Notes under the pieces: model-generated
The model's database searches: none
The model's input: the letters and a program-made list of their open reading frames with translations, nothing else
What the model was told of the DNA's origin: nothing
Assembly: GCA_028702495.1 (NCBI GenBank)
Contig: JAQVOS010000003.1
Coordinates: 1 to 55,847, forward strand
Length of the DNA: 55,847 nucleotides
DNA from: Bacilli bacterium
GTDB lineage: Bacteria; Bacillota_I; Bacilli_A; ML615J-28; CAG-698
Direction: 5' to 3'
Shown: positions 25,088 through 55,306 of the stretch, piece after piece
How the letters are laid out: every line of letters begins with the position of its first letter
Position numbering within the stretch: the first letter of the stretch is position 1
Position numbers and translations under genes: made by a program

Positions 25088-25093
25088 ATATGA

Positions 25094-25154: not shown

Positions 25155-25201
25155 AATCACTGGACATTTTTAACCAGCATTTGTAGTTGCATTGGCTTTT
25201 T
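25140..25201 (+). terminator. Riboswitch expression-platform terminator overlapping the aptamer 3' end
   Basis: gctaatg..ctacaa pairs with ttgtag..cattggc, followed by TTTTT. Confidence 0.7.
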
Positions 25202-37124: not shown

Positions 37125-37209
37125 GGTGGGGTAGCGAAGTGGCTAAACGCGGTGGACTGTAAATCCACTCACTCAGTGTTCGGTGGTTCGAATCCACTCC
37201 CCACCACCA
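37125..37209 (+). tRNA. tRNA-Tyr (GTA)
   Basis: GGTGGGG/CCCCACC acceptor stem, anticodon arm gtgga-ctGTAaa-tccac, long variable arm, GGTTCGAATCC, encoded CCA. Confidence 0.95.
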
Positions 37210-37215
37210 TTTTCT

Positions 37216-37289
37216 AGGGCCATAGCCAAGCGGTAAGGCAAAGGACTTTGACTCCTTCATCTCTGGTTCAAATCCAGATGGCCCTGCCA
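37216..37289 (+). tRNA. tRNA-Gln (TTG)
   Basis: AGGGCCA/TGGCCCT acceptor stem, aagga-ctTTGac-tcctt anticodon arm, encoded CCA. Confidence 0.95.
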
Positions 37290-38999: not shown

Positions 39000-39104
39000 A
39001 AAAGTTTCTCACAACTATCGTTTTATCCATTGACTTTCTACAAGAACCTACGAAGTACCTAAAAATGTTTAATCGAAGAATAATGATAAATTATAAACAA
39101 AGAG

Positions 39105-39136
39105 AACCACTTTCGTATTAATGTGAGTGGTTTTTT
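39105..39136 (+). terminator. Terminator after the ArsR module
   Basis: aaccact...agtggtt followed by a T-run. Confidence 0.6.
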
Positions 39137-39232
39137 GCATTACAAAGCATAATTTCAATAAATTTTCTATCTTAATTAATGAATAAATAAAATATATTAA
39201 TGAATTTTAATAATAAATTTTGCTATTTCATA

Positions 39233-39299: not shown

Positions 39300-39419
39300 A
39301 TGAATGAAAAAAAAGTTTACGAAATTCCAAAGGTTGAAATTGTAATGTTTAAAAATGATGAAATCATTACATCTAGTGGTGAAATGGATTTTAGCGAATT
39401 TGATGAAGAAGGAGAATGA
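39300..39419 (+). CDS. Unannotated 39-aa RiPP-precursor-like peptide P1: MNEKKVYEIPKVEIVMFKNDEIITSSGEMDFSEFDEEGE
   Basis: Translated by hand; strong RBS AAAGGAGGT, own promoter, YxxP leader motif, near a PqqD/rSAM cassette. Confidence 0.8.
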   Translation: MNEKKVYEIPKVEIVMFKNDEIITSSGEMDFSEFDEEGE

Positions 39420-39424
39420 AAAAC

Positions 39425-41902
39425 ATGAAAATGAGCAAAATCGTATTAAAAGCAACATTTTTATTAGTATCCATTGTTGCATTATTTTGCGTAGGCACTC
39501 GAATCTTTGTTAATGCTGCCCAAACCATTAATATGACCAATGGTGCACAAATTCGAACAACAGGGGAACGGCAAGGACTACGCTTTACAACGACAGTAGG
39601 GGAAGCTTTCGCTGAAGGATCAGAACATGGTTATTACCTTGCAAAAGGTGAACATGACATTGCTGACATGATAGACGCTATAGAGGCCTCAGCATCAACA
39701 ATTGATGGTAATAAATTAGTTAAGAAAGTGTTTGAAGATAGTGACCTTACTTTTAGTTTGGTTATTTATAATATTCCACAAAGTGCCTATAAACAAGACA
39801 TTACTGCTCTTGCTTACATCAAAGAGGGAGAAGTCTTTACATTTCCAGAAATTGCTGTAACAAGAAATATTGCTGAAGTAGCAGTAGCAGCATATTCATC
39901 TTATGAGGACGATGTTCCTGCCATTATTGCAAGTGCTGCAACTCAACAAGTAAATTATAATTTTAATGGTGGTGCATTTGTTGCTGAAAAAGAATTTACT
40001 ATTACAAGATATAATGCTGATACGACAGGTGCACATGTCAAAATTAGTAATGCAGCATCGGGTCAATACAGTATGTATTATCGTGTTTTGTATTTAGAAG
40101 AAACAAGTAATCCAAATGTTTTTGAAATCGTAAAATATACTAATGCTACTACTGTTGATACTTCTGGAGCATATGACTTATATATTGGAGCACATGATAC
40201 AGCCGTTGACCATACTGGTTACTTGACGGTTTTGTCATTAATGGCACCATCATCAATAGGTAAATATATTAGTCTAAGTTCAATTCCTACCGTAGCTGGA
40301 ACTGTTTCAGTAAAAGCAAAAGTATTCTCATCAAGTGAATTTACATATGCTTGCGAAAATGCAGTTCAAAATTATATCGGAGCAACCACTCCTAAAAACG
40401 TCCAAAAAGATTATTATGATTTTGTTGGATGGTATGATAACGCAGAATTCACGGGAGACGCTGTTACAGCCATTGCAGCTGGTAATAAAGGCTCTGCAAT
40501 GAATCTTTATGCTAAATTTACGCCTACTATCTACACAATTAATTATGAACTGGACAGTGGTAGTTGCTCTGATGAGGCGCGTGCAACAAGTTATACCTAT
40601 GTAAGTTCTGCTATTGCACTTCCATTGAGTGGAACCATGAGTAGGGATGGTTATGATTTTGTTGAATGGAATACAAAAGCAGATGGAACTGGGGAAACTA
40701 TAACCAGTATTCCAACTGGATCTCATGCTAATATCACAGTATATGCTATTTGGGCGAGCCAAGTTCCTACGGTAGTTGATTTGTCAAGTGAAGATGCTGC
40801 GATCATTAATGCTATCAATCCAACAAAATTTGTTAATACTTTATTTACAGCAGGTCGTTTCACAATTGGTGAAAATACTTATAAAGTAGGTGAAGGAGAA
40901 TTATTTGCAACGATAGCTTCAGCATTATCTGCAGCATCTACTAATGATGTTATTTATGTATTTGCTGGAACTTATTCGGATGTCGCCAATATTGCTGTTA
41001 ATAATCTGACATTAGTAGGGCCTGGTGCAAATAAAACTTTAGTTCATACTGATACTTATTCTGTAAATGTTGTTACTGAAGCATTGATTACTAAAGAGCT
41101 AATTATTGATAGTGGTGTATCTAATACTACTATTAAAGGCTTTTCAATGACAAATCAAATTACCATTTCTGGAAATGCGACTGTCAATATTTCTAATATC
41201 ATTTTTGGTGATATGACGGGTTTTGATACAGGATTTGATGGATCAATTAGAATTAAAGCAGCATCAAGCAATATTACGATTGATAGGGTATATTTCACTA
41301 GTAAATGTGCAAATCGTGGTGTTCATGTTAATGCTTTAACAACAAACTTCACATTAACAAATTGTGTTGTTTTAGATTCTGTAAGTGATCTTGTCGATTT
41401 CTGTAGATTTGGTCAAAGCAATACTTTATGTGCTAAAGGGACAATTATTTTTTCTAATAACTACATCCAAAAATGTAGTCAATCTGGCTTTATGGATAGA
41501 GTACCTAGTACTGCAAGTTATATATTTATCCACAATACATTTGATACTGTTCCAGCAGCTATATATATGAGAGCAAATGATAGTATAGGAGCTGCATCAT
41601 ATGAAGTTAAATATAATACATTTAATAAATGCGGAACTACTACACTTGATTGGGATGATGTTGCATTAACCACGGGTGCAAGTACAATTGTTAACTTTAA
41701 CTATAATATAATTACAAATAGTTATGATATGAGTGGTTGTTACAATATTAAAGTTAGAAATGACAGTGGAACAATCAATTGTGCAAATAACTATGTTGAT
41801 ACTGCATCACAACCTACTGACAATTTAAATGCTACTGGATTTACATTATTAGATAATGCTGAAGCAGTTGCTACTGCTTATGCTGCATATTTAGCTGGTT
41901 GA
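39425..41902 (+). CDS. Secreted surface protein, N-terminal part (GAQIR..GLRF domain, InlB B-repeats, right-handed beta-helix); ends at an in-frame TGA
   Basis: Signal peptide; YDFVGWYDN/DGYDFVEWN repeats; ATIASALSAAS.NDVIYVFAGTY. Confidence 0.75.
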   Translation: MKMSKIVLKATFLLVSIVALFCVGTRIFVNAAQTINMTNGAQIRTTGERQGLRFTTTVGEAFAEGSEHGYYLAKGEHDIADMIDAIEASASTIDGNKLVKKVFEDSDLTFSLVIYNIPQSAYKQDITALAYIKEGEVFTFPEIAVTRNIAEVAVAAYSSYEDDVPAIIASAATQQVNYNFNGGAFVAEKEFTITRYNADTTGAHVKISNAASGQYSMYYRVLYLEETSNPNVFEIVKYTNATTVDTSGAYDLYIGAHDTAVDHTGYLTVLSLMAPSSIGKYISLSSIPTVAGTVSVKAKVFSSSEFTYACENAVQNYIGATTPKNVQKDYYDFVGWYDNAEFTGDAVTAIAAGNKGSAMNLYAKFTPTIYTINYELDSGSCSDEARATSYTYVSSAIALPLSGTMSRDGYDFVEWNTKADGTGETITSIPTGSHANITVYAIWASQVPTVVDLSSEDAAIINAINPTKFVNTLFTAGRFTIGENTYKVGEGELFATIASALSAASTNDVIYVFAGTYSDVANIAVNNLTLVGPGANKTLVHTDTYSVNVVTEALITKELIIDSGVSNTTIKGFSMTNQITISGNATVNISNIIFGDMTGFDTGFDGSIRIKAASSNITIDRVYFTSKCANRGVHVNALTTNFTLTNCVVLDSVSDLVDFCRFGQSNTLCAKGTIIFSNNYIQKCSQSGFMDRVPSTASYIFIHNTFDTVPAAIYMRANDSIGAASYEVKYNTFNKCGTTTLDWDDVALTTGASTIVNFNYNIITNSYDMSGCYNIKVRNDSGTINCANNYVDTASQPTDNLNATGFTLLDNAEAVATAYAAYLAG

Positions 41903-44230
41903 ACTACCAGTGATAGAATTAATCATTCTATTGATGAATTAGATGATGATTTTAGTTCTATCACGGTAATCTCAAGTGATTTATCATTACCCACTGAAAA
42001 TACAACGTATCAAACAAGCATTTCATGGAATTCAAGTCATACACATATTGTGAGTAATACAGGGGTTTTTACAAAACCTTATCACGATACAGCCATTACA
42101 TTAACAGCGACCATATCATATGGGGAAGATAGCACGACCAAAGATTATACTTTTAATGTTGAAAGTGATTTTAAAGATTTGTCACAAGGAATCATTGCTG
42201 AATACTTGTATACTAGCATATCCAGTACAAGTGACTACACGTTTGAACAAGCCAACATATTGTTTGTTGCTTTTGGAGCCGCTAGTGCTACAGGAACGAT
42301 TAGCAATGCTTCCTCCATCGGATCAACCATTACTACGGATGTTGTGACTAAAGCCCATAACAATGGAACTCGTGTATTATTGTCTATTAATGGTGCTTCT
42401 AATTTAAGTGCGATTGCAGCTGATGCCACTTTAAGAACAACATTTGCTAACAACATTGTAAGTTTTATCAATACATATGGTATTGATGGAATCGATATTG
42501 ATTGGGAATTCCCTTCTAGTGCAGAAGCCACCAATTTCACATTGTTGATGAAAGAAATCTACGAAAAAGTAAAAGCAAATAATCCCTATCATTTAGTTAC
42601 AGCTGCTACTGGCATTGATACATATGTTCGATATGATTTAGAAAATTCAGTACAGTACTTAGATTATGTCAATATTATGACCTATGATATGCAAAGTTCT
42701 ACAACAGCAACGAATCATTCAGCACTTTATTATAAGAGTGGACATTGCTATAAAGCTATCAGTAATGCTTACACCTATTATGTAACCAATTTAGGATTAA
42801 ACGCCAACAAATTAATATTAGGAATTCCTTTCTATGGTAAAACATTTACGAATACGAATGGATTAGGAACAAGTGCTACATATTCAGGTTCAATAACATA
42901 TTCTTTAATTGTCTCTACTTATTTATCTAATGCAAATTATACCGAATATTGGGATAGTGATTGTCAAGTGCCTTATTTATATAGTGCTGTAGATAGAACT
43001 TTTATAACTTTTGATAATCCCACATCGATTTCATTAAAGATTCAGTATGCAGCTAGCAAAGGATTTGCAGGAATCATGTCTTGGCAAGATGGTCAAGATA
43101 GTAATGATATCTTATTTAGTGCTATGGTTGAGGGTATGAATGATAAAAGGATATCATTTAGTGCCAATATTGGCTTGTTAGGCCTACTTATTCAAGGAAA
43201 CAAATCGACCGTTTTACACAAAGATGTGAATTTTGGTGGATCAATAACCAATGAAGTATATGGTTCAGTAAATCTATATTCAACAAATAGTATCAGTATC
43301 AATACAAGTAAAAAGATGGCTGATGGCGATTTAGGCAGCGATAAAACTTATGGACTCATGGATTCATTAGAGTTTATTACAATTCATGATACTGGTAATA
43401 CATCCACAACTTCTAGCGCTTTAGCAAATACGAATTATATGCTTGATACTCCTAATGTGTCATGGCATTATACAGTAGGTGATAGTTCAATCTATCAAAA
43501 CATGAGTGAGGCATATACTGCTTACCATGCTGGTAGTGGGGCAAGAGTCTTTGCTTTACAAGATACAGGCATTGATGCTTCATACTATGGGAATAACACA
43601 CCGATCATAACATTTGATAATAATGGATATTATGCCATTAATGGTATTTCTACAACTCTTCGTCCTTATAGTGATGTGAGTGGAACAACTAAAGATAGTA
43701 CTAAATATACCACTTCACAAATAACCGAGTTTGGTATTTACTGGGCAATTGGTGCAAATGGTCACTATTATTTAAATAAAACATACTATAATAGCACTTA
43801 TGCTAAAGTGTGTAATTTTGGTGGAAATACAAACTCTATTGGGATTGAAACAACTGTCAATAACGGATCTGATATTTATCAAACATGGCAAAATACCGCC
43901 AAATTAGTAGCAGATATTCTAGTGAGAAATAATCTAACCCCAAATGAAGTTTTATCTCATAATGCATTTAGTGGTAAAGACTGTCCTCATACATTGTTGA
44001 ATGCGAATCTATTTGATGAATTCATAAATATGGTTATTATGGAGTACAATATTAGAAAGTACTATTCGGACTATACCATCGTTTTTGAAAGTATGTCTCC
44101 TGATGTTATTGATAATGATGGAAGAGTAATTGTTCCAATTACTAATGACACGACTGTATATTATAAAATTACCATTAGTAAAGAGGACATTAGTGAAAGT
44201 GTAATCCTTTCTTCCATAATTCCAGCATAA
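41903..44230 (+). CDS. Ig-like, GH18 chitinase-like, Amidase_2 and Ig-like region; same frame as the upstream ORF, with no signal peptide or evident RBS
   Basis: SDLSLPT..SISWNSS..TLTATI; DGIDIDWEFP; IHDT, SWHYTV, AYHAG, SIGIE, SH...KDCP; frame open from 41903. Confidence 0.8.
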   Translation, partial: TTSDRINHSIDELDDDFSSITVISSDLSLPTENTTYQTSISWNSSHTHIVSNTGVFTKPYHDTAITLTATISYGEDSTTKDYTFNVESDFKDLSQGIIAEYLYTSISSTSDYTFEQANILFVAFGAASATGTISNASSIGSTITTDVVTKAHNNGTRVLLSINGASNLSAIAADATLRTTFANNIVSFINTYGIDGIDIDWEFPSSAEATNFTLLMKEIYEKVKANNPYHLVTAATGIDTYVRYDLENSVQYLDYVNIMTYDMQSSTTATNHSALYYKSGHCYKAISNAYTYYVTNLGLNANKLILGIPFYGKTFTNTNGLGTSATYSGSITYSLIVSTYLSNANYTEYWDSDCQVPYLYSAVDRTFITFDNPTSISLKIQYAASKGFAGIMSWQDGQDSNDILFSAMVEGMNDKRISFSANIGLLGLLIQGNKSTVLHKDVNFGGSITNEVYGSVNLYSTNSISINTSKKMADGDLGSDKTYGLMDSLEFITIHDTGNTSTTSSALANTNYMLDTPNVSWHYTVGDSSIYQNMSEAYTAYHAGSGARVFALQDTGIDASYYGNNTPIITFDNNGYYAINGISTTLRPYSDVSGTTKDSTKYTTSQITEFGIYWAIGANGHYYLNKTYYNSTYAKVCNFGGNTNSIGIETTVNNGSDIYQTWQNTAKLVADILVRNNLTPNEVLSHNAFSGKDCPHTLLNANLFDEFINMVIMEYNIRKYYSDYTIVFESMSPDVIDNDGRVIVPITNDTTVYYKITISKEDISESVILSSIIPA

Positions 44231-44389: not shown

Positions 44390-45094
44390 ATGTATTATAA
44401 GATTGCTGATCTCATTGTGGATATGAATCCTCAATATGCCCCCTTAATCAATCAAATTGCCCCTTATAAAATAGATGATGTTCCCGAAGTTGTTCATTGC
44501 GTGATTTCTCAAGGCAATAAAACCATTACGGAACAAAACAAAAAATATCCCCGATTATCTAGGGGTGAAGTTGAGTACTTATTATATGGAGCTTATTTTT
44601 ATGATGCTTTATTGAAATATCAAGGAATCCTTCTTCATTCATCTTGCGTTATCTATCAAGGAGTAGCTTACCTCTTTTCTGCGAATTCAGGTGTGGGTAA
44701 GTCAACTCATACAAGTATTTGGTGCCGCATTTTTCCAGAAGCTTTTATTCTAAATGATGATAAACCTGCCCTCAGATTTGATGAGGATCGATTATATGCT
44801 TATGGAACTCCTTTTTCCGGGAAAACCAACCAAAATGTGAATGCGCGATATCCTGTTGCTGGAATTGCATTTATTCATCGGAGTGACATCAATAAAAGTG
44901 AACCTATTTCCACTAAGCAAGCTCTCGTTCGCTTTATGCAGCAAACATTAAAGCCCCATGATGAAAGTCGTTTTGATCTCATCGTTCAAACACTCGAATG
45001 TATCTTAAAAACTACAAGGTTTTATTCACTCGGCGTCAATATGTCAGATGAAGCCGCACTCATGGCCTATGATACGATGAGGCAAGATCGCTAA
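44390..45094 (+). CDS. HprK-related P-loop kinase-like protein A
   Basis: LLHSS, FSANSGVGKST, ILNDDKP, YGTPFSGK. Confidence 0.75.
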   Translation: MYYKIADLIVDMNPQYAPLINQIAPYKIDDVPEVVHCVISQGNKTITEQNKKYPRLSRGEVEYLLYGAYFYDALLKYQGILLHSSCVIYQGVAYLFSANSGVGKSTHTSIWCRIFPEAFILNDDKPALRFDEDRLYAYGTPFSGKTNQNVNARYPVAGIAFIHRSDINKSEPISTKQALVRFMQQTLKPHDESRFDLIVQTLECILKTTRFYSLGVNMSDEAALMAYDTMRQDR

Positions 45095-45134
45095 ATTGTT
45101 CATCACATAGTCAAAAGAGCAAATAAGTAAGGTA

Positions 45135-45163
45135 TTGCGAAAGAACGATTGTTGTGATAAAAT
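45135..45163 (+). promoter_or_regulatory. Internal promoter of the modification cassette
   Basis: TTGCGA-17 nt-TAAAAT with extended -10 (TGa). Confidence 0.55.
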
Positions 45164-45189
45164 ATTAGTAATATTTCTGAGGATATACT

Positions 45190-45615
45190 ATGAAAGAATT
45201 AACCTATCAAGAGATTATTGATCAATATGGTGGCTTTATTTATTATCCTGTTGGAACGAGCATGCTTCCTCTCATTGTGGAGGGAGTTCACTCCGTCAAA
45301 CTTGAAAAAATTAATCGCCCCATTCGTAAGTATGATATCGTCTTATATCATCGAGACAATGACCAATATGTTCTTCATCGTGTGGTTCGAGTTCATGAAG
45401 ATTTTTATGATATGAAGGGTGACAATCAATTTATGATTGAAAAGAATATTCGCAAAGATCAAGTGATTGCGATTATGAGTGGCTTATATTGTCAAGAACA
45501 AATCGTACCCCTCCAAGGTTTTCGATATCAAATTTCCATACGAATGAATCTTTGGTTTCGCCATTTTCGTCGACTCTTTCAAAAAATTAAGCATTTACTT
45601 AAACGCAAAAAATAA
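45190..45615 (+). CDS. S24/S26-family peptidase A
   Basis: GTSMLP, DIVLY, YVLHRV, KGDN; basic amphipathic C-terminus. Confidence 0.85.
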   Translation: MKELTYQEIIDQYGGFIYYPVGTSMLPLIVEGVHSVKLEKINRPIRKYDIVLYHRDNDQYVLHRVVRVHEDFYDMKGDNQFMIEKNIRKDQVIAIMSGLYCQEQIVPLQGFRYQISIRMNLWFRHFRRLFQKIKHLLKRKK

Positions 45616-45624
45616 GAGGGCTTT

Positions 45625-46347
45625 ATGAAAAAAGTATCAATTCTTTTACTTCTAATCACAATGTTTTTATTTAGTGGCTGTAAAGGTACGCCTCTAACAT
45701 CGCTCGAAGTTTCTTTTGAGTCCATTCGGTTGATAAATGAAGGATTAGAGGTTACTTTAAAACCTAATAGCGAGATACTTAAACAAGATAAACTCCATAA
45801 AATTGGGATAGCGATTGGTTGTTCTAAAGACTCCTCTTTATCAATCGAAGAAGCAATCAATGTGATTACGATTGATTTTGAAAAAGAGACTGATCAAGAA
45901 GATTATATTTTTCTTTTTGAAAACATTGATGAGAGTTTTTATAACGTAAGTCTTACAATTCAACCTTATCTCGTACTTAATAATGAAGAAATAGAATATC
46001 TAGCCAATCATTCAACGTGTATATTGTATCAACTAGCAAAACAAGAAGAACATACATATTCAGAGTGGGTTGTAAGTGTTGTAGAGGAGAAAGTGATTAG
46101 TGAGATTCGCTTAACTGCTGATTATCAAAATTATACAGTTCAGTCCCTCAGTGAAGGGTATCAAGCCATCCTTGAAACCGATTATAACTACATCACTATT
46201 ACCATCACCATTCTAGATGATTATTTACTTCGCACCACCTTTCAGTTAATTATCAATGATACAGTTTTAGTCCCCAAGAACATTCAACCCGATTATCGAA
46301 CCATTACTTATATGATTGATGATCCGAATTGGACACAACCTTACTAA
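45625..46347 (+). CDS. Lipoprotein of unknown function
   Basis: Lipobox FSGC; C-terminus IDDPNWTQPY. Confidence 0.7.
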   Translation: MKKVSILLLLITMFLFSGCKGTPLTSLEVSFESIRLINEGLEVTLKPNSEILKQDKLHKIGIAIGCSKDSSLSIEEAINVITIDFEKETDQEDYIFLFENIDESFYNVSLTIQPYLVLNNEEIEYLANHSTCILYQLAKQEEHTYSEWVVSVVEEKVISEIRLTADYQNYTVQSLSEGYQAILETDYNYITITITILDDYLLRTTFQLIINDTVLVPKNIQPDYRTITYMIDDPNWTQPY

Positions 46348-46377
46348 AAAACTGCAAAACTTTTTACATTGTAAAAT

Positions 46378-47550
46378 ATGAATGAAACGAGGAATTACTT
46401 GATGAAAAATAAAGACATAATTACCATTCTATATCATATTATTCACCCGGAAGTTTCTTGTTCGAACCCATTTACTTATAAAGAGGTTGAGGGCTTATTC
46501 AAGTTTCACAGTTTAGAGCCTTTCCTTTTTCTTGCTTACAAACAAGGACTGCTTGTAACTTCTCCTGAAGAAGAAACAAAAATTACAAAACAATATCAAA
46601 TCGCGATTTACAAAATGTCAGCTCAAGAAGAGGAATTAAAACTGATTAAAGAAACGCTTACCTCAAATCAAATTCTCTTTTTACCGATTAAAGGTTCTTG
46701 GGTTCGTGCTTGTTACCCTTCGCCTGAACTTAGAACCATGGCTGATCTCGACATTTTAGTTCCAAAAAATAAACTAAAAGTGGTCAAAGCTTGCATGCTA
46801 TCTTTAGGGTATACCAGTGAGCATGAAGGTGGAAACCATGATGTGTATCACAAACGTCCCTTTATGAATGTTGAAATGCATCGCAATATGGTCGATGAAT
46901 CCTATACTTTATCGAAATATTATCGTAACATTTGGGATCGACTGAATCCCAATGAAGGCGCCTACGAGTGTGCCCTTACGCCCGAAGATCATTACTTATT
47001 CCTCATTGCTCATAGTGCAAAGCACTATGGAAATGGAGGAACTGGGGTTCGCTCCGTTCTTGATATCTATTTTTATTGGAAAAAATTTCCTACCATGAAT
47101 AAAGAATATATTCTTGAAGAACTCCATAAACTTGAACTCGTTCAATATGAGGCAAGTCTATACGCTCTCTCTCAAAGCTGGTTTGAGGGTGTAATAGAAT
47201 CTGAAGAAATCACCATGATGGGAGAATATCTCCTTTCAAGTGGTGTTTACGGAACGACAACACATGCCGTTGCATCCGCGCTTAGTTCTATGGATGAAGC
47301 AACATCTCTTTCTTCGCGTAAATGGAAATATCTATGGCATCGGGCTTTTCCTCCCTTTAAAACGATGAAGCAACTCTATCCATCCTTGAAGGTATTCTTT
47401 GTATTTCTTCCTTTTTATTACCTCCATCGACTACTCAAGGGATTATTCACAGGAAAAGTGGCTCAACAAACCCAACAACTAAAACACATCAATGAACAAC
47501 AAGTACAAAAGAATCAACAAATAAAAGACAAAACAGGAGTACAAAAATGA
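46378..47550 (+). CDS. Nucleotidyltransferase family protein (NTP_transf_5-like)
   Basis: LPIKG..YPSPELRTMADLDILV, VEMH, H.AKH...G.GVRSVLD. Confidence 0.85.
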   Translation: MNETRNYLMKNKDIITILYHIIHPEVSCSNPFTYKEVEGLFKFHSLEPFLFLAYKQGLLVTSPEEETKITKQYQIAIYKMSAQEEELKLIKETLTSNQILFLPIKGSWVRACYPSPELRTMADLDILVPKNKLKVVKACMLSLGYTSEHEGGNHDVYHKRPFMNVEMHRNMVDESYTLSKYYRNIWDRLNPNEGAYECALTPEDHYLFLIAHSAKHYGNGGTGVRSVLDIYFYWKKFPTMNKEYILEELHKLELVQYEASLYALSQSWFEGVIESEEITMMGEYLLSSGVYGTTTHAVASALSSMDEATSLSSRKWKYLWHRAFPPFKTMKQLYPSLKVFFVFLPFYYLHRLLKGLFTGKVAQQTQQLKHINEQQVQKNQQIKDKTGVQK

Positions 47551-47810
47551 AAGTAAAAAAAGGGTTCATGCTACGTGAAGTAGCTCAAAATTTTGTTGTG
47601 GTTCCCGTAGGAAAAGCAGCGATTGATTTTAATGGAATTATCACTCTAAATGACACTGGCGCTTTCTTATGGAGTCAGTTGCTAGATGACATTGAATTTG
47701 CTGAATTGAAAGCAAGACTCAAGAAGGAATATCAAGTGGATGATAAAACTGCAAGCATTGATATCAAAAATTTTCTTGCTGAACTAGATCAAGCTAAATT
47801 AATAGAGTAA
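47547..47810 (+). CDS. PqqD-family RiPP recognition element
   Basis: 87 aa; FMLREVA..VVVP..FNGIITLNDTGAFLW..L..EY.VD. Confidence 0.9.
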   Translation: MKVKKGFMLREVAQNFVVVPVGKAAIDFNGIITLNDTGAFLWSQLLDDIEFAELKARLKKEYQVDDKTASIDIKNFLAELDQAKLIE

Positions 47811-47836
47811 AATCCATTATTACAATGGGAGGCCCC

Positions 47837-48844
47837 ATGAACTATATTACGCTTCGAAATCAAATGATTCAACAAGCAGCCAAAACCAAAACCCCGATTA
47901 TGGGTGAGTTTGAACTGACTCCCTCATGTAACCTAGCTTGTAAAATGTGCTATGTTCGTGAGACACAATCCCAAAAAGAATTAACAACGAGTCAGTGGAA
48001 AGAACTTTTTCTAGAGGCAAAGAAAGAAGGCCTCCTTTTTTGCTTGCTTACAGGGGGGGAAATCTTTCTTCGTAAAGATTTCCAAGAGCTTTATGAATAT
48101 ATATATGATTTAGGTATTCGTGTATCTTTATACACCAATGGAACATTAATTACGGATGAAGTGGTTTCGTTTTTATCTTTAAGAAAACCCGACTTTATTG
48201 GAATCACTTTGTATGGCGCGAATCCCGAGCAATATAAAGAAATCACAGGTTCATCCCTCGCGTTTCATCAAGTAGAAGCAGGAATTAAGCGACTTCAAGA
48301 GGCAAATATTCCTCTATTGGTTCGAACCATAGCCATCCAATCAATTTATCAAAATCTTGATGAAGTCATTCAATATTTTAAAGATCATCATTTTTCGGTA
48401 TCCTATAGTTTATATGTCGGACCTCGGCGTAGTTGCCCTGGAAGTGAAAGTGTTGATCGCCTTACTCCCTCTGAACTTGTTGATTATAAGAATCAATTTC
48501 TAGAAGCTTTTGGAGTATCAAAATCGATTGAAGTGAATGATTGCTTTAGTAGCTTTCGATGCGTTGCGGGAAAAAGTTCTTACTTTGTTCGTTGGGATGG
48601 AACAATCATGCCTTGTGCCATGCTCGAAGTACCTCGATTTGATGCTCTTCTTTCCTTTAAAAAAGCATGGGGCGATTTGGGTGAAGCGATTCAGAAAGTC
48701 CCGCTGTGTGATGAGTACGCCACTTGTTCGCTTCGATCTACCTGCATTCAATGCCCAGCAAGTCGGTATCTTGAAGGTGGATTCTCAAAATGTAGTTCTT
48801 ATTTAAAAGAAATAGCACGGGAACTTAAGGAGAAAGAGTCATGA
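47837..48844 (+). CDS. Radical SAM/SPASM-domain protein
   Basis: ELTPSCNLACKMCY, LTGGE, YTNGT; C-terminal C-x17-C and C-x5-C-x5-C-x2-C-x12-C; ATG 47837 follows GGAGG. Confidence 0.9.
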   Translation: MNYITLRNQMIQQAAKTKTPIMGEFELTPSCNLACKMCYVRETQSQKELTTSQWKELFLEAKKEGLLFCLLTGGEIFLRKDFQELYEYIYDLGIRVSLYTNGTLITDEVVSFLSLRKPDFIGITLYGANPEQYKEITGSSLAFHQVEAGIKRLQEANIPLLVRTIAIQSIYQNLDEVIQYFKDHHFSVSYSLYVGPRRSCPGSESVDRLTPSELVDYKNQFLEAFGVSKSIEVNDCFSSFRCVAGKSSYFVRWDGTIMPCAMLEVPRFDALLSFKKAWGDLGEAIQKVPLCDEYATCSLRSTCIQCPASRYLEGGFSKCSSYLKEIARELKEKES

Positions 48845-49686
48845 AAGCCTATAAAATTGCCTCCATTCTTCTAGGCTTTTCTCATCCCGATAACCCTTTG
48901 ATTGATGATCGATTGGTGCATTATGAAACACAAGAATCTCCTCAGTATGAAATGAGTGTGCTATATCACCCTTGTATTACGATACAAGAAGAAGTGACAA
49001 TGACTCATGAACAAGTTTGTACATATGAGGATTCAGATAAAACCATTACTTATACATACAATAAAAGTCATCAATTACTCTCGAAAGTAACCATTGCAAA
49101 AGATATGAAGCGAATTGTGATTGAATTATCAGAAGTATTGGGATCGAAACTTCCAATGATGGAATATGTTACAACGGGGCTTTATTTCTTTGAGATTGCC
49201 CTTCATGCGGGATATTTACCACTTCATGCATCCGCCATTATTCACGAAAGCAAAGCGGTTCTATTCTCTGCTCCATCAGGAGTAGGTAAATCTACTCAAG
49301 CAAATTTATGGAAAACGATGAATCCCAAAATTGAAATCTTAAATGATGATAAACCATTAATCTTATGTAAAGATGAAATACGCGTATTTGGAACCCCATG
49401 GTGTGGAAAAACATTTCAGAATAAGAATACCTCCGTTCCTCTAAAAGCCATTACTTTCATTGAACAAGGATTAGAAAATGTGATTACACCTCTCTCAAAT
49501 GAAGAAAAAATGATTCATTTATTTAAGAATACACATCGTAGCCAAATCTCAACTAATCTTGAAACGACCATAACCAGTATGCAAACCCTTATTGAAAAAG
49601 GAAATCTTTTCTTCTTTACTTGTACAAAAACACAAGAAGCATATGACACTTTATATCAATACTTATACGGTGAAGTCTATGATTGA
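48841..49686 (+). CDS. HprK-related P-loop kinase-like protein B
   Basis: LHASA, FSAPSGVGKST, ILNDDKP, FGTPWCGK. Confidence 0.75.
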   Translation: MKAYKIASILLGFSHPDNPLIDDRLVHYETQESPQYEMSVLYHPCITIQEEVTMTHEQVCTYEDSDKTITYTYNKSHQLLSKVTIAKDMKRIVIELSEVLGSKLPMMEYVTTGLYFFEIALHAGYLPLHASAIIHESKAVLFSAPSGVGKSTQANLWKTMNPKIEILNDDKPLILCKDEIRVFGTPWCGKTFQNKNTSVPLKAITFIEQGLENVITPLSNEEKMIHLFKNTHRSQISTNLETTITSMQTLIEKGNLFFFTCTKTQEAYDTLYQYLYGEVYD

Positions 49687-50119
49687 TAAGAAAATATCAA
49701 TTGAAGTAATGGGACCAATTATTGAAGAAACGATAAAACAAGATGGAACCGTTAAACTTCAAATATCTGGAAATAGCATGCGTCCCTTTTATATTCACCA
49801 AGAAACAATTGTTTGTTTGGAAAAGGTTCATTCGCCTCTTAAACAATTCGATGTTGTCTTTTATCGCAATGAAAACGAGCAGTATCTTCTTCATCGCATC
49901 ATCAATATTAAAGGAAGTACTCTTGTGATTTGTGGAGATGCTTTATCGCAAAAAGAATATATCGATGAATCTTTAATCATAGCTCGTGTACAGTATCATG
50001 AGCGAAATGGAAAAGTCACACCCTCTTCATCAAAGCGATATCAAATGAAAGTGAAATGGTGGAATAAACTCAGTCCACTACGAAAATACCTCATTCGGTT
50101 CTTTCCTTATAAAAAATAA
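49679..50119 (+). CDS. S24/S26-family peptidase B
   Basis: GNSMRP, DVVFY, YLLHRI, CGDA; basic amphipathic C-terminus. Confidence 0.85.
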   Translation: MIDKKISIEVMGPIIEETIKQDGTVKLQISGNSMRPFYIHQETIVCLEKVHSPLKQFDVVFYRNENEQYLLHRIINIKGSTLVICGDALSQKEYIDESLIIARVQYHERNGKVTPSSSKRYQMKVKWWNKLSPLRKYLIRFFPYKK

Positions 50120-50122
50120 CAT

Positions 50123-50157
50123 AAGAAGCCATTGCTTGATTCAATGTGCTTCTTTTT
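50123..50157 (+). terminator. Terminator closing the cassette
   Basis: aagaagc-cattg...caatg-t-gcttctt followed by a T-run. Confidence 0.7.
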
Positions 50158-50194
50158 GTATAAAAATGTAATGTTAAAAAAATATAAAAAGTTC

Positions 50195-50272: not shown

Positions 50273-50401
50273 ATGATTCAAGAAGAAAAAAAAGAGTATC
50301 AAAAACCGGTCATTCAAGTGGTGAAATTTACCCTTGAAGAAGGGATTGCGGAAAGCACGATGAGTGGAGAAGGGCCAAATTTAATTTGTTTGGATGCATA
50401 G
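50273..50401 (+). CDS. Unannotated 42-aa RiPP-precursor-like peptide P2: MIQEEKKEYQKPVIQVVKFTLEEGIAESTMSGEGPNLICLDA
   Basis: Translated by hand; RBS AGAAAGGT; aligns to P1; stop codon overlaps the RBS of the next gene. Confidence 0.8.
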   Translation: MIQEEKKEYQKPVIQVVKFTLEEGIAESTMSGEGPNLICLDA

Positions 50402-50411
50402 GAGGATGAAT

Positions 50412-53003
50412 ATGAAAAAATTAAAAAGTATTTTATTCGTCTTTATCGCTTTAATGCCTTTTATCATGGTTGGAACCATTGTAAAAGGAGCACCGACTAC
50501 AGTAAATGTTAGTGTCACTAGTTACTTTGGTGAAGATAACGAAGTCACAAATAATGCCAATGGTAAAGCATATGGCACAAAATTTTCCTTTAATGCAAAT
50601 CTGCAAGCCAATGATCATTCATTTGCATTTTGGATTGTTAATGGAGTCGTTCGTAAAGATATTACTACCGTTGACCACCCATTCTTTGCCACTGAAAATT
50701 TAAATCTAAAAGCTATTTTTGCACCAACAGATAAATATGCTGTTGTTTTCATGGACTCTAACGGGAAACTTTTAAAAGTTGAGTACGTCAGTCCTAATGG
50801 AGATGCAACAGACATCACAGAAGGATTACCATCAAAACCAGGATATCAAGTTTCAACAACTGCTAAATGGAGTGGTTCACTCACTGGAATTACTGGTAAT
50901 ACGGTACTAGTATTACAATATGAAAAAATAAATGACGCTACTTATGCTGTCACTGTTAACAATGGTACAGGAAGTGACACATATGATTATAATGAACTTA
51001 TCACGGTGGTTGCGAATGCTCCCACTGAAGGACAATATTTTAGTCATTGGGAATCTAGTGGAAAAGTTGTGAGTCGTCAAGCTACTTATCAATTAACAGT
51101 TTTAAAAGCAATGACTTTAACAGCTGTTTATACTAGTGAACAACCAACAACTGTTGCTTCAATATTCTTAGAAAATAAGTTGGATTTGAAAGAAGGATAT
51201 TTTAGTTATCAAGGACACTTTGAATTACCAGAAGGATATGTAGTCGTTGAAGTGGGAGTTCTTTATTCAAGCACCCTAGACACTTTCGATGTTGACACAA
51301 CTTCAGTATCTAGAAAAGTCATTGGCAAATACAATGCTGAAAATGGAGAATTCTTAGTTAGTGTAGAAAAAAACAACACTGGACATCTTCGTTCTTATTT
51401 AATTTACTCAAATGTATCAACCGGACAAATAAGCACAGTCTATAGTGATATTGTTACTACGAACCCGAATGACTTATTCATTAGTGAATATGGAGAAGGT
51501 GGAAGTAATAATAAGTGGATTGAGATATATAATCCAACAAATGGAACCATTGATTTATCAAATTATTCATTAAAGCTTTATACAAATGGTTCAGGAACAG
51601 CCTCTAATCCTTTAAGTTTATCTGGTACACTTGCATCTAAATCGACTTATGTGGTTTACAACAGCGCAGCCGTTACCGACATCTCAAGTAAAGGTCAAAT
51701 TGCTGCTTCAGTAACGTATTTCAATGGTGACGATGCAGTGACATTAGAGAAAAATGGTGAAATTGTTGATATTATTGGGATGGTTGGAACCGACCCAGGC
51801 ACTGCCTGGACATGGGATGATGGATCAACATTGGATATGACTTTAGTGAGGAAATTTGGTATTTATTATCCAAATAGTACATGGACAACCTCTGAATGGG
51901 ATGCATATCCTCAAGACACATTTGCTTACATTGGAAGTCATCAAACGACAGAAATCATGCCGATCACTATTACAGTTTCTGGCGATACACGTGTTTTGGA
52001 AACTAAAACAATTCAGCTATCTTCATCTGTGTCGCCTTCTGGTGCAGTACCTACCGTTGATTGGTCATCAAGTAATGAATCAATCGCTACTGTAAGCTCA
52101 ACAGGTGAAGTGACTGGGGTTGCTGCAGGAACTGTCACAATTACTGCCACCTCAGTTAAAGATTCAAATGTATATGATGAACACATTATTATAGTCACTG
52201 AGCCCAATTATTTTGATATTAATGTAGGTTCAAATGATGATAGTTATGGAACCGTCTCAACAAATAATCCAAGCGTAATCGAAGGTGGTAGTGTTAACAT
52301 TACTCTTACACCTGCAACTGGGTATCGTTTAGTTTCACACACAATAAACAGTGAAACCACAACATATGAAAATCAAACATCTACATTAACAATAACAATA
52401 AATGATATTACATCTAACCAAACAGTGAGTGGTCTATTTGAAGAAATACCCACAGGAACCATGACGGAGCAATACGTTTTCAATTTTGGAACAGACAATA
52501 AAACAGGATATGCTCTCGGTACTGTTACTTTCGACAATAATGATGGCATATCATATACTCTTAATAAAAATAGAGCTCAAATTAATACCTTAAGTGGATA
52601 TACTCCAGCACTAATATTAGCGCCGATTAAAGGGTACTTAGTCGCATATGTGGAAATTGACCTGACAAGTGTTTCATATAATGTTGAAGAAATTAGTTTT
52701 AAATATACGGCATGGTCCTCAAGTGCAATTACAAATATAAAAGACACAACAAAAGCAACAAACCCGGTCTTCGTATTGCAATACTATAATACAAATACTA
52801 GCGTATGGGAAACATTGACTAGCAAAACATTAATATCAAATCTTGTTAATACCGTTACAACATCATATCAAGAAATCGTATATACTGTTTCAGGAAAAGG
52901 AAAATATAGACTTTTGGTACAAATGGATAGTGCTACTAGTGCAACCAATACAAATTATGCAATGGTTGTTGATGACTTCTCGATCCGTGCAATGTCGGAA
53001 TAA
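50412..53003 (+). CDS. Secreted multidomain protein, N-terminal part (divergent InlB B-repeats, lamin-tail domain, Big_2 Ig domain)
   Basis: Signal peptide; DLFISEYGEGGSNNKWIEIYNPT (LTD); VDWSSSNESIATVSSTGEVTGVAAGTVTITATS (Big_2). Confidence 0.8.
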   Translation: MKKLKSILFVFIALMPFIMVGTIVKGAPTTVNVSVTSYFGEDNEVTNNANGKAYGTKFSFNANLQANDHSFAFWIVNGVVRKDITTVDHPFFATENLNLKAIFAPTDKYAVVFMDSNGKLLKVEYVSPNGDATDITEGLPSKPGYQVSTTAKWSGSLTGITGNTVLVLQYEKINDATYAVTVNNGTGSDTYDYNELITVVANAPTEGQYFSHWESSGKVVSRQATYQLTVLKAMTLTAVYTSEQPTTVASIFLENKLDLKEGYFSYQGHFELPEGYVVVEVGVLYSSTLDTFDVDTTSVSRKVIGKYNAENGEFLVSVEKNNTGHLRSYLIYSNVSTGQISTVYSDIVTTNPNDLFISEYGEGGSNNKWIEIYNPTNGTIDLSNYSLKLYTNGSGTASNPLSLSGTLASKSTYVVYNSAAVTDISSKGQIAASVTYFNGDDAVTLEKNGEIVDIIGMVGTDPGTAWTWDDGSTLDMTLVRKFGIYYPNSTWTTSEWDAYPQDTFAYIGSHQTTEIMPITITVSGDTRVLETKTIQLSSSVSPSGAVPTVDWSSSNESIATVSSTGEVTGVAAGTVTITATSVKDSNVYDEHIIIVTEPNYFDINVGSNDDSYGTVSTNNPSVIEGGSVNITLTPATGYRLVSHTINSETTTYENQTSTLTITINDITSNQTVSGLFEEIPTGTMTEQYVFNFGTDNKTGYALGTVTFDNNDGISYTLNKNRAQINTLSGYTPALILAPIKGYLVAYVEIDLTSVSYNVEEISFKYTAWSSSAITNIKDTTKATNPVFVLQYYNTNTSVWETLTSKTLISNLVNTVTTSYQEIVYTVSGKGKYRLLVQMDSATSATNTNYAMVVDDFSIRAMSE

Positions 53004-54127
53004 CTGACCCTATAGATGAAACACAGCCCAATATAACATCTGAACCATCCTATGAAAGTGGGGTGGTTCAGTTATCTGTAGGGGATAATTGGACATTACC
53101 TTCTATTTTCGCAATCGATGATACAGATGGTAATATCTCCAATCGGGTTGAATCAAACTTATTAGCTATAGATGATTTCCATGTGAGTGGTAATGAATAT
53201 CATTTCACTACTTCTGGTTCTTATGTCATCTCATTCTCTGCAAGAGATAATGCAGACAATGTCGGAACTCTCACACTCACCATTGAGGTAGTAGCACCTA
53301 CTTATAATTGGTCCAGTATTTCATATTATTCCTCATTATCATCAAGTGATGATGTTTTAACTGATCTTGCGTTGTTACTACGAAGCACGGTCGATTATGT
53401 ATCTTATGGGGATGCAAGATACGTCTATACAACCTATGAGAACGGCAAACAAGTTATCTTATATGATGTTCCAACATCTCCTAGTTATGGAAAAGTAACA
53501 GCTGAAGGACTTGCTGGATGGGGAGATGGTGGCAATATTACTGGAGATGGGTTCTCTATTTCTATCAATCGTGAACATGTATGGGCTTGTAACGATATGA
53601 GAATTATGCCAAGTAATCAAGATCGCACTTTAACAACCGGATACGTTAATTATGTTTTAAATGATGGGTCATTTGACTATCGTCCTGATAATGAAAACCT
53701 AGGTCATTTTAGTGATCTACATAATCTATGGAATGCTTTAGCGAGTCCTAATAGTACCCACTCCGATCATTTCTATGGAGAAGAGAACGGCTCCTCTGTA
53801 GGACCCTATTTAACCAATGAAATCTTTTATCCAGGGGATGAATATATTGGCGATATCGCAAGAATCCTTTTCTATATGACGCTTATGTATCCTCATTTGA
53901 CTCTTGTTGAAGAGGGAGATACGAATGCCGTCGAAGGAACCATTTATTATGGCTATTTAGACATGTTATTACAATGGAATGAAGAAGATCCTGTGAGTTA
54001 TTATGAAATCACACGCAATCAAACGATTTATGAAACTCAAGGAAATCGTAATCCCTTTATTGATTATTATAGTCAAGATATCGCTGCTTTTGTTTTCGCA
54101 AATGGCGATCCAAACATTTCTGATTAA
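52976..54127 (+). CDS. Ig-like domain plus endonuclease I domain; probably the frameshifted C-terminus of the upstream gene
   Basis: Frame open from 52976; NREHVW, DLHNL, GDIARILFYM, LLQWNEEDPV, RNQ.IY..QGNRNPFID. Confidence 0.82.
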   Translation, partial: LLDPCNVGITDPIDETQPNITSEPSYESGVVQLSVGDNWTLPSIFAIDDTDGNISNRVESNLLAIDDFHVSGNEYHFTTSGSYVISFSARDNADNVGTLTLTIEVVAPTYNWSSISYYSSLSSSDDVLTDLALLLRSTVDYVSYGDARYVYTTYENGKQVILYDVPTSPSYGKVTAEGLAGWGDGGNITGDGFSISINREHVWACNDMRIMPSNQDRTLTTGYVNYVLNDGSFDYRPDNENLGHFSDLHNLWNALASPNSTHSDHFYGEENGSSVGPYLTNEIFYPGDEYIGDIARILFYMTLMYPHLTLVEEGDTNAVEGTIYYGYLDMLLQWNEEDPVSYYEITRNQTIYETQGNRNPFIDYYSQDIAAFVFANGDPNISD

Positions 54128-54180: not shown

Positions 54181-54238
54181 ATTTTTGTTCTTGAAGAATT
54201 ATGAAAAGATAGTATAATAATAACTAATGGAGGTTAAC

Positions 54239-55306
54239 ATGAAAAAAAGTTTATTGATTCTTTTATGTATCCTTTTTTTAGTATCTTGCACCAAAAAGGT
54301 GGACCCAATTGAACCTCCGAGTAACATTTACTATCACGAAGAAAGCTTAACATGGAGTGCTATCTATGGAGCAACGGGATATCAGTGTCTCATTGGGCGC
54401 TTTGTTTATGAAGTGAGTAGTTCTGAATTCGATACGAGTAACCTCGATTCCGGAACCTACGAAGTGAAAATCATTACCCTTCAAGGGAAAGCATACTCTA
54501 AACCCTCAGAGGCGTATACTTTCACCATTATTCGGGATACCACTTTTCCTGTGAATATCCGCATTGAAGAAGATGTCCTATTGTGGGATGTAGTAGACCA
54601 AGCACTAGGGTATATTGTTGATATCAATGGTGAACAAATCATTGTGAATACGAACGATTATGCTTTATCCTCCCTTCCAATCAACACTTTTTATGGCATC
54701 TGTCTCTCCACATTATATCCTCATGATCAGCGCTCAAGCTTCAGTTTACCGCTGGCTTATCACACTTTTGTTGATGCAAGTGATGTTTGGGAAGTCACCT
54801 ATCTCAAAGGGCAAGAAGAGCATGTAATCATTGATTTAACCCCTCTAAATCACCCTGTAATCGCATTACACGATGAAGACGATAACTTATTAATCTCAAG
54901 TGATATTTTGATTGAAGAGGATACCCTCACAATGGCAAAGTATTACCTTGATGAGTATTCCTATGGAAAATATATCTTTTTCCTCTATACAAGTGATGAA
55001 AAAATTGTGATACACCTAACAGTCGGTGATACTCGCGAGCCGCATGTTGTTGGAACTGGATCCTATCAATATCAAAGTGGCTCTTCCATTGAAATGGTTT
55101 TTGAACTCTATGATGGTGTGATTTCCAGTATCAGTGGCGGAACCATTACCCCAGAGGATTACACCATTGAAGGAAATACCCTCATTTTATCATCTACTTA
55201 TCTTGATCGCGAATTTGGATCTTCAGGTCGTGAACTTTTAGTCCTAGGAGTGGTCCTAGAATCCAATGCCCATTTCGTCATTTCTTATCAGTTCATTAAT
55301 AGGTAA
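54239..55306 (+). CDS. Lipoprotein with Fn3-like repeats and X2-like Ig modules
   Basis: Lipobox LVSC; LTWSAIYGATGY / LLWDVVDQALGY; DYTIEGNTLILSSTYL. Confidence 0.65.
   Translation: MKKSLLILLCILFLVSCTKKVDPIEPPSNIYYHEESLTWSAIYGATGYQCLIGRFVYEVSSSEFDTSNLDSGTYEVKIITLQGKAYSKPSEAYTFTIIRDTTFPVNIRIEEDVLLWDVVDQALGYIVDINGEQIIVNTNDYALSSLPINTFYGICLSTLYPHDQRSSFSLPLAYHTFVDASDVWEVTYLKGQEEHVIIDLTPLNHPVIALHDEDDNLLISSDILIEEDTLTMAKYYLDEYSYGKYIFFLYTSDEKIVIHLTVGDTREPHVVGTGSYQYQSGSSIEMVFELYDGVISSISGGTITPEDYTIEGNTLILSSTYLDREFGSSGRELLVLGVVLESNAHFVISYQFINR

Follow-up and report, generated by a model that had tools for sequence, protein, structure and literature searches.

Two short genes flanking a radical SAM/PqqD cassette in a Bacilli genome are probable precursor-peptide genes of a new leader family

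Introduction

A 55,847-nucleotide stretch of DNA from a Bacilli bacterium (contig JAQVOS010000003.1, positions 1 to 55,847; ‘the window’ here always means this whole stretch) carries two very short genes, P1 and P2, which lie 11 kb apart, with P1 upstream, on either side of a cassette (44390-50119) that encodes a radical S-adenosylmethionine (rSAM) enzyme, a PqqD-like protein, two ScmC-like proteins, two S26-like peptidases and an NTP_transf_5 nucleotidyltransferase-family protein. P1 and P2 are, with a probability of roughly three in four, translated precursor (substrate) peptides of this intervening cassette, which would make them part of a system for peptides synthesized ribosomally and modified post-translationally (RiPPs). 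An earlier note, made from the letters of the window alone, had taken them for hidden paralogues with a YxxPxL motif in the leader and had considered rSAM, phosphate and nucleotidyl modifications and cleavage by two peptidases. The comparisons reported below bear out the paralogy, a leader of YxxP type such as PqqD-like RiPP recognition elements (RREs) bind, and an association with the rSAM, kinase-like, nucleotidyltransferase and peptidase genes between the two.

The evidence that carries this reading is comparative. More than 100 peptides that adjoin homologous cassettes have the same leader in a fixed register, and the features generic to precursors of RRE-dependent RiPPs are present in the family, namely a conserved leader, a hypervariable core, and linkage to an RRE and modifying enzymes across taxa. 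Comparative genomics thus supports the RiPP-precursor reading well, and by its gene content the cassette appears to work like an RRE-dependent rSAM RiPP system. New are the precursor family itself, its predicted S26-type leader junction, and its pairing with secreted proteins; full-text literature searches returned no paper on the peptide family or on this combination of genes.

Results

Two hidden peptide genes

The 42-codon P2 reading frame at 50273-50401 (+) and the P1 frame at 39300-39419 (+) are present as the earlier note described them (Table 1), as is the overlap of the P2 stop codon TAG (50399-50401) with an AGGAGG ribosome-binding sequence (50400-50405), 6 nt ahead of the ATG of the next gene at 50412. 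The P1 stop codon overlaps the start of its downstream gene (ATGA). A strong Shine-Dalgarno (SD) sequence, AAAGGAGG, precedes P1, and P2 has a weak one only (AAAGG). When all six frames of the window were scanned for the Y..P.h.h pattern in short open reading frames (ORFs), it was convincing at P1 and P2 only.

That the likeness of the two peptides is not due to chance, as the note had argued, was confirmed independently with a family hidden Markov model (HMM) built from seven peptides of other genomes, P1 and P2 excluded. Run against the window's 1570 six-frame segments from stop to stop that are 20 aa or longer, this model matched P1 with E 6.5e-8 and P2 with E 2.5e-7, the next match having E = 1; a second model, of the first 30 residues of 49 Clostridial peptides, matched P2 with E 6.8e-8 and P1 with E 1.9e-4. 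Word-indexed protein searches with P2 and P1 returned the query itself and one homologue only, and among 5.8 billion proteins P2 has a single close homologue, P0002 (MTENQVKKEYQKPSVQVVEFTLEEGIAESLLSGENLICLEEME). A profile of P2, P0002 and P1 found 35 matches with E <= 1e-3 among 1.84 billion representative proteins, all of them 32-87 aa long.

Between P2 and its orthologue P0002 (locus L001), 15 codons are identical, 14 differ by synonymous changes only and 11 are non-synonymous, and the spacer upstream of P2 is unconserved, unlike the coding part; judged by this codon pattern, purifying selection acts on P2. Because of the significance of the HMM matches and the codon pattern of P2, both P1 and P2 are genuine protein-coding genes. 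Their shortness and the weak SD sequence of P2 might be taken to mean that they are chance ORFs in AT-rich intergenic DNA, a reading to which we give practically no weight in view of E-values of 1e-7 to 1e-8 against the six-frame background, the 35 relatives in the representative proteins, the conserved synteny described below, and the purifying-selection pattern.

Leader and predicted cleavage site

Fifty non-identical peptides of the Bacilli/Izemoplasmatales type were anchored on an invariant proline (P, 50/50), from which the other positions are counted. They share the leader Y-x-x-P-x-h-E-h-h-x-F-x-x-E-[ED]-x-I-[AT]-x-S in fixed register, with Y at P-3 (46/50), E at P+3 (43/50), F at P+7 (47/50), E at P+10 (43/50), E or D at P+11 (46/50), I at P+13 (44/50), A or T at P+14 (46/50) and S at P+16 (47/50). 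Beyond P+16 conservation falls away, G at P+20 excepted (27/50). In 59 Clostridia-type peptides the register is unchanged, with P+7 being L, P+10/11 E-E and P+14 A in 48/59. The leader of P2 comprises residues 1-28 (Y9, P12, F19, E22, E23, I25, A26, S28), that of P1 residues 1-25.

This register does not agree with the way in which the earlier note had aligned the two peptides, on a T-x-S-G-E string regarded as a homologous motif with a conserved Thr at -2 and a common cleavage site before SGE. The TSSGE of P1 occupies P+14..P+18 and the TMSGE of P2 occupies P+17..P+21, so that the strings are three residues out of register and neither the shared motif nor the common cut can be upheld. Nor is the Thr conserved, the closest P2 homologue, P0002, having L-L-S-G-E and the alignment having no conserved Thr column after P+14; homologues in general do not conserve T-x-SGE. 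An S-G pair recurs at both positions in different subfamilies (with the Ser at P+16 followed directly by G[DE], or by xxSG), between which there may have been an ancient 3-residue indel.

What is conserved is [AT]-x-S at P+14..P+16. S26 peptidases require small or neutral residues at -1 and -3, and because [AT]-x-S fits this rule, the leader is predicted to be cut after the Ser at P+16 by an S26-like peptidase. The predicted cores would therefore be TMSGEGPNLICLDA for P2 and GEMDFSEFDEEGE for P1. Alternatively, the invariant Ser may be the target of modification by the kinase-like protein.

The note had drawn on lasso peptides for its view of the leader, and in that reading P1 and P2 would be lasso-type precursors with a YxxPxL leader and Thr at -2, cut before SGE and then tailored. 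A YxxP leader and a discrete PqqD-like RRE protein, for which binding is predicted here, are indeed common to lasso systems such as those of paeninodin and pseudomycoidin, and some Firmicutes lasso clusters carry HPr-kinase-like and nucleotidyltransferase genes (PMC8498205). No Pfam or NCBIfam model matches the peptides, the only likeness being a weak one, limited to the leader, of the family member P0127 to the NCBIfam model lasso_cyano (E 0.12). However, neither an Asn-synthetase-like cyclase nor a transglutaminase-like B2 protease was found in Pfam scans of the cassette and the other large ORFs scanned in the window or in related loci mapped against the window proteins; the cassette peptidases are all S26-like, with an inferred leader cleavage of the Ser/His type, and an rSAM enzyme is present. 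Lasso leaders have a conserved Thr at the penultimate position (PMC10368454), which is unconserved here, the SGE strings are out of register, and cores of 13-14 aa are judged too short for a ring with a threaded tail. A lasso origin is therefore exceedingly improbable.

The intervening cassette and its predicted chemistry

The PqqD-like protein, the only one in the window, is presumed to be the leader-binding chaperone. In the rSAM enzyme, the CX3CX2C motif (C35, C39, C42) and six more Cys are invariant across homologues, a pattern consistent with a SPASM domain, and its nearest solved structure is that of the thioether-forming SkfB (E 6.8e-20), followed by PqqE. Both ScmC-like proteins have the invariant P-loop S-x-x-G-K-S-T; TIGR04249 (ScmC), matched with E 6.8e-12, is the best NCBIfam model for ScmC_a as well as ScmC_b, this and HprK-related matches lying below cut-off, and a later Pfam version labels their homologues PF27840 ScmC. 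The S26-like peptidases have G-x-S-M-x-P, L-H-R and G-D motifs that are invariant across 12 homologues and have no N-terminal membrane anchor. Among solved structures, their profile matches those of signal peptidase I and SEC11 (E 0.0014-0.03), in an alignment that includes the Ser motif, and sub-threshold NCBIfam matches point, for S26_a, to archaeal-type signal peptidase I and SipW and, for S26_b, to bacterial- and archaeal-type signal peptidase I. Searches of PDB sequences with ScmC_b, S26_b and the NTP_transf_5 protein found nothing significant, and an ScmC profile compared with structures gave non-significant matches to HprK and PEPCK only (E ~0.8).

G, E, D and aromatic residues abound in the predicted cores. 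The P2 core contains a single Cys, C40, in a Cys-x-Asp sequence, and the P1 core contains none. Among peptides that adjoin rSAM genes, 60/67 have a Cys from P+15 onward; because of this frequency, and with SkfB as the nearest solved enzyme, a thioether on Cys40 of P2 is plausible. QhpD-type enzymes form thioethers from Cys to Asp or Glu (PMC7876137, PMC10114670). For the kinase-like and nucleotidyltransferase proteins, a precedent is found in Firmicutes lasso peptides, in which an HPr-kinase homologue places a phosphate on a precursor Ser, to be decorated by a nucleotidyltransferase (PMC8498205); by analogy, these two activities may reasonably be expected here as well.

Together these elements suggest a pathway in which PqqD would bind a beta-strand-like leader segment, PxIEVVxF, for presentation to the enzymes. 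The rSAM enzyme would then install a cross-link in the short acidic core; in P2 the likeliest one is a thioether that starts from Cys40 and may end at the acidic residue at +2. The kinase-like and nucleotidyltransferase proteins would add phosphate-based groups to a Ser. Removal of the leader by an S26-like peptidase after the conserved Ser would free the two predicted cores. Each peptide would be co-transcribed and translationally coupled with the gene that follows it, and its product would probably act together with the product of that gene.

Distribution of the family

Homologues of the rSAM enzyme occur in uncultured Bacilli, Izemoplasmatales, Dehalobacter, Clostridia and others. Through an alignment of 27 of them, 79 genome loci were chosen, and contigs were fetched for two homologues besides. 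In these loci, picked by rSAM homology alone, a scan of all small ORFs found peptides with the same leader in about 41/79; with one exception the peptides share the strand of the rSAM gene, and most lie no further than about 1.5 kb from it. The other cassette genes co-occur to varying extents: PqqD in 67/86 loci, ScmC-like genes in 72/86, S26-like genes in 42/86 and NTP_transf_5 in 34/86. Hosts of the cassette include the cultured Ruminiclostridium sufflavum and R. cellobioparum (L024, L044, L047), many Clostridial metagenome-assembled genomes (MAGs), and MAGs of Izemoplasmatales and Acholeplasmatales.

A scan of metagenomes with an alignment of seven P2-type sequences added 12 loci. A homologue of the 863-aa LTD protein that follows P2 comes directly after the peptide in all of these for which downstream sequence is available; where contigs reach upstream, the order is rSAM, ScmC_b, PqqD, S26_b, NTP_transf_5, peptide, follower. 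For the P1-type peptides P0124, P0149, P0141 and P0155, the next gene is homologous to that of the 828-aa Flg_new protein, and GH18/amidase and ScmC_a genes come after it where visible. Because both module orders recur in related loci, the window is a merger of two syntenic modules, P1-big1-GH18-ScmC_a and rSAM-ScmC_b-S26_b-P2-big2, around one PqqD and one rSAM gene. Two peptide-follower pairs likewise flank one cassette in L010 and L101.

Other arrangements were seen among the related loci. In an Oscillospiraceae MAG (L075, 247-1002, +), four peptide genes that share this leader stand in tandem immediately ahead of the rSAM gene (1212-2276), two of the peptides with a Cys near the C-terminus and two without a core Cys. 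Eleven Clostridial loci (L021-L024, L026, L027, L030, L031, L033, L044, L047) contain a pair of rSAM genes along with peptides of two or three types, a Gly/His/Trp-rich one (…EEGIA[CH]FGS…WGWFFPW) upstream of PqqD and two-Cys types (…EERMAGSICxGAC…) downstream of rSAM. In a Mycoplasmatota locus, L015 (4952-6835, +), a 627-aa ORF whose best match is rSAM, and which is possibly an rSAM/ScmC-like fusion, is followed by PqqD, S26-like and NTP_transf_5 genes, which makes a second cassette in the same locus.

Transcription units and follower genes

A strict terminator scan found none near the peptide genes, and folding of the spacers revealed hairpins with longer loops (Table 1). The hairpin after S26_b suggests that the enzyme genes are separated from the P2 transcription unit, and because hairpins and promoter-like sites precede both peptide genes, each peptide seems to open a transcription unit that it shares with its downstream gene.

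Table 1. Features of the window in and around the P1 and P2 units.
Feature	Position	Strand	Evidence or remark
Terminator-like hairpin and U-run upstream of P1 unit	39098..39140	+	-15.5 kcal/mol, z = -5.3
Promoter-like TTTACA-17-TATAAT ahead of P1	39233..39261	+	11/12 matches, TG extension
P1, predicted 39-aa paralogous precursor peptide MNEKKVYEIPKVEIVMFKNDEIITSSGEMDFSEFDEEGE	39300..39419	+	ORF, family HMM
P1 follower, 828-aa secreted protein	39416..41902	+	Sec signal peptide, Flg_new (InlB B-repeat) domains
GH18 (EndoS-like) and Amidase_2 protein	42050..44230	+	Conserved third gene of P1-type unit
ScmC_a, ScmC/HprK-like P-loop protein (SGVGKST)	44390..45094	+	
S26_a, soluble S26-like peptidase (GTSMLP ... 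LHR ... GD)	45190..45615	+	
240-aa predicted lipoprotein, function unknown	45625..46347	+	Homologue in L087 (1-504) just upstream of P1-type peptide
NTP_transf_5 nucleotidyltransferase-family protein	46378..47550	+	E 1.1e-44
PqqD-like RRE protein, 87 aa	47547..47810	+	E 5e-14
Radical SAM/SPASM enzyme	47825..48844	+	Radical_SAM 1.8e-23, weak SPASM matches
ScmC_b, ScmC/HprK-like P-loop protein	48841..49686	+	33% identical to ScmC_a
S26_b, soluble S26-like peptidase (SGNSMRP ... LHR ... GD)	49679..50119	+	Start uncertain; ORF opens 49592
Terminator-like hairpin and U-run after S26_b	50118..50160	+	-13.8 kcal/mol, z = -4.2
Promoter-like TTGATT-18-TAAAAT ahead of P2	50195..50224	+	TG extension; consensus match only
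P2, predicted 42-aa precursor peptide MIQEEKKEYQKPVIQVVKFTLEEGIAESTMSGEGPNLICLDA	50273..50401	+	ORF, family HMM, codon comparison
P2 follower, 863-aa secreted protein	50412..53003	+	Sec signal peptide, LTD + Big_2 + Flg_new_2
Endonuclease_1-family protein	53063..54127	+	Conserved P2-type unit member
CBM_X2-containing lipoprotein-like protein	54227..55306	+	Conserved P2-type unit member

A short gene that stands first in its transcription unit, with a stop codon overlapping the start or ribosome-binding site of the next gene, could also be a regulatory upstream ORF, whose translation controls the follower and whose peptide is functionless. This is very unlikely for P1 and P2, as their amino-acid sequence is kept over large distances through many synonymous changes, the same leader occurs beside rSAM genes that have no follower, no known cis-regulatory RNA family in Rfam matches at either site, and the conserved part is N-terminal, unlike that of arrest peptides, in which the C-terminal end is conserved. 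Two further candidates were rejected: the peptides have no resemblance to AgrD-like pheromones, and a Sec-monitoring arrest peptide does not accord with their N-terminal conservation and lack of a hydrophobic segment.

The gene next to P2, which the earlier note had taken for a nuclease, encodes an LTD/Big_2/Flg_new_2 protein, the Endonuclease_1 gene lying one gene further. Of the 26 peptide genes in the Bacilli/Izemoplasmatales clade with downstream sequence, 22 have as the next gene an ATG-started gene for a protein with a Sec-type signal peptide, at a distance of -8 to +29 nt; the complete followers are 700-1273 aa long. Among the four misses, L109 is a failure of the crude detector, and in L093 (8251-10129) the P1-like P0156 sits 13 nt after a 578-aa Flg_new protein and not before it. 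Follower architectures vary (Flg_new; LTD + Big_2 + Flg_new_2; GHL10 + Big_2 + Flg_new), all with B-repeat-type modules, and the two followers in the window have no mutual homology detectable by BLAST. Peptide type tracks follower type, the P1 type occurring with big1/Flg_new and the P2 type with big2/LTD; the pair is seen twice in the window (39300-41902 and 50273-53003) and in L010, L101, L016, L025, L105-L109, L111, L088 and L112. An in-frame fusion of peptide and follower was found in none of the loci examined. Clostridial loci have the cassette and peptides and no such follower, and because of this the pairing is, on the gene content of these loci, a lineage-specific elaboration.

From this pairing a different reading can be derived, in which the peptides serve first of all as small partners of the secreted followers, for instance as subunit, chaperone, inhibitor or anchor, and are not, or not always, substrates of the cassette, their leader being there for a different interaction. 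The spacing in 22/26 cases, the co-variation of peptide and follower types, the shared transcription unit, and the persistence of the pairing without a cassette in flanks of ~10 kb (L093, L111) argue for it. However, the same leader in the same register is found in Clostridial loci with the cassette and without a follower, a fixed-length YxxP leader is a signature of RRE-dependent substrates, and the cassette is adjacent in the window and on most long contigs. We regard this reading as distinctly unlikely, and it is compatible, on the model of QhpC discussed below, with P1 and P2 being precursors modified by the cassette.

Surroundings

The rest of the window is ordinary chromosome (glycogen operon, tilS, ftsH, lysS, hsp33, fabF); that it is of the ordinary Bacilli type follows from the complete glycogen operon (3586-14956, +), which comprises a malQ-like GH77 gene, glgB, glgC, a glgD-like gene, glgA, glgP and an alpha-amylase gene. 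An apparent single-base frameshift near 21085-21095, in the Walker A region, divides ftsH (20454-22450, +) into two ORFs; it is either an assembly error or a genuine disruption. A fluoride riboswitch (RF01734, 37.8 bits; 25087-25160, +) lies directly upstream of a Na_H_Exchanger-family gene (25217-26437). The genes for tRNA-Tyr (GTA) and tRNA-Gln (TTG) (37125-37289, +) lie ~2 kb upstream of P1, and are followed, ahead of P1, by genes for an ArsP-type permease and a small thioredoxin-fold protein.

Discussion

The cassette recalls several known systems and coincides with none of them. Haft's SynChlorMet cassette (SCM; ScmC TIGR04249, ScmE/ScmF TIGR04250/04251) likewise combines an HprK-like ScmC with a PqqD that is a protein by itself and with an rSAM/SPASM enzyme resembling PqqE, and the highest NCBIfam matches of the rSAM enzyme here include ScmE; the SCM precursor has reportedly not been identified. 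Differences from SCM are the single rSAM enzyme here as opposed to two, the additional S26-like and NTP_transf_5 proteins, and the hosts, which are Bacillota and Izemoplasmatales. Sactipeptide and ranthipeptide systems (SkfA/SkfB; QhpD-type) share an rSAM/SPASM enzyme nearest to SkfB, a leader and, mostly, a core Cys, in P2 as Cys-x-Asp. In contrast to these systems, the RRE here stands apart from the enzyme as a protein of its own, and many of the cores contain a single Cys or no Cys at all. Proteins of the kinase-like, nucleotidyltransferase and S26-like kinds are additional, and there is neither an ABC transporter nor a C39 peptidase. The PqqA/PqqD/PqqE and MftA/B/C systems, too, pair a short peptide with a chaperone of the PqqD type and with an rSAM/SPASM enzyme, and the acidic and aromatic residues of the cores recall the Glu-Tyr link of PqqA; unlike PqqA and MftA, however, the peptides described here have no conserved Glu/Tyr pair or C-terminal Val-Tyr, no cofactor-tailoring genes lie downstream, and the cores are highly variable, unlike a cofactor precursor.

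Several observations weigh against P1 and P2 as substrates of the cassette, or against parts of the proposed pathway. ScmC_b and ScmC_a score 45.3 and 24.4 bits against the 125-bit cut-off, which makes them relatives of ScmC and not equivalogs, and the rSAM enzyme reaches 90.8 bits with ScmE, for which the cut-off is 400. The AlphaFold2 models of ScmC_b and S26_b, each made from a single sequence, were too poor to use (predicted local distance difference test scores of 30.6 and 45.3), and the cassette encodes no exporter. No cassette lies within 10 kb on either side of P0156 in L093, and the peptide-follower pair of L111 has none in its available flanks. The whole P1 type is without Cys, and in several P2-type homologues the place of the P2 Cys is taken by W or F, so that, from these sequences, a thioether cannot be the universal reaction; Cys-less peptides also occur directly beside rSAM genes, in L075, L026 and L033. 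The thioether that the earlier note suggested for P2 is plausible for that peptide. The sequence [C/F/W/Y]-x-[D/E] is present in 34/48 cores as compared with 19.9 +/- 3.2 in shuffled ones, a comparison that ignores the relatedness of the peptides; the excess is a hint that would fit a cross-link from Cys or an aromatic residue to an acidic one, of the QhpD or PqqE type. Finally, both the modification chemistry and the cleavage site are predictions.

QhpC is the best precedent for the pairing of a peptide with a secreted protein. This small leader-bearing polypeptide is cross-linked (Cys to Asp/Glu) in the cytoplasm by an rSAM/SPASM enzyme, loses its leader to a dedicated serine protease, and then serves as the gamma subunit of the secreted quinohemoprotein amine dehydrogenase, whose large signal-peptide-bearing subunits are encoded in the same operon (PMC7876137). 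We compare the two systems without claiming homology: QhpC is ~80-110 aa long, has four Cys and a Trp-derived quinone, and is exported by a dedicated ABC transporter, whereas the followers here are B-repeat/LTD proteins associated with hydrolases and not dehydrogenases, and QhpC/QhpD have no PqqD, kinase-like protein or nucleotidyltransferase.

On this model, in Bacilli with a thin wall or none (Izemoplasmatales, Acholeplasmatales and related groups), the peptide might be made for one large secreted protein rather than as a free natural product, its core being the dedicated partner of the InlB-B-repeat/LTD follower. Once cross-linked by the rSAM enzyme, decorated with phospho- or nucleotidyl-type groups and freed of its leader, a 13-18-residue acidic/aromatic core would join the follower as a subunit, a prosthetic group, an anchor, or a licence for its secretion or activity, as in the analogy with QhpC. 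We offer this as a tentative proposal that is unlikely to be correct in this form, and that P1 and P2 have become partners of their followers is speculation. These lineages are associated with extracellular DNA degradation.

That P1 and P2 are precursor peptides of the cassette would have consequences beyond this window. A precursor family is thereby assigned to a widespread, uncharacterized rSAM/PqqD/ScmC/S26/NTP_transf_5 cassette, together with a testable leader logic, in which 16 residues, a fixed number, separate a presumed RRE-binding YxxP strand from an A/T-x-S junction suited to the cassette's own S26-like peptidase; to our knowledge, an S26-type leader peptidase would be unusual among RiPPs. 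As cultured Ruminiclostridium carry the cassette, its chemistry is experimentally accessible. The pairing with secreted proteins suggests that the modified peptides have a role in the biology of surface or extracellular enzymes and not in antibiotic production and, if the partner reading is true, RiPP chemistry would be tied to the machinery that degrades DNA and glycans outside the cell.

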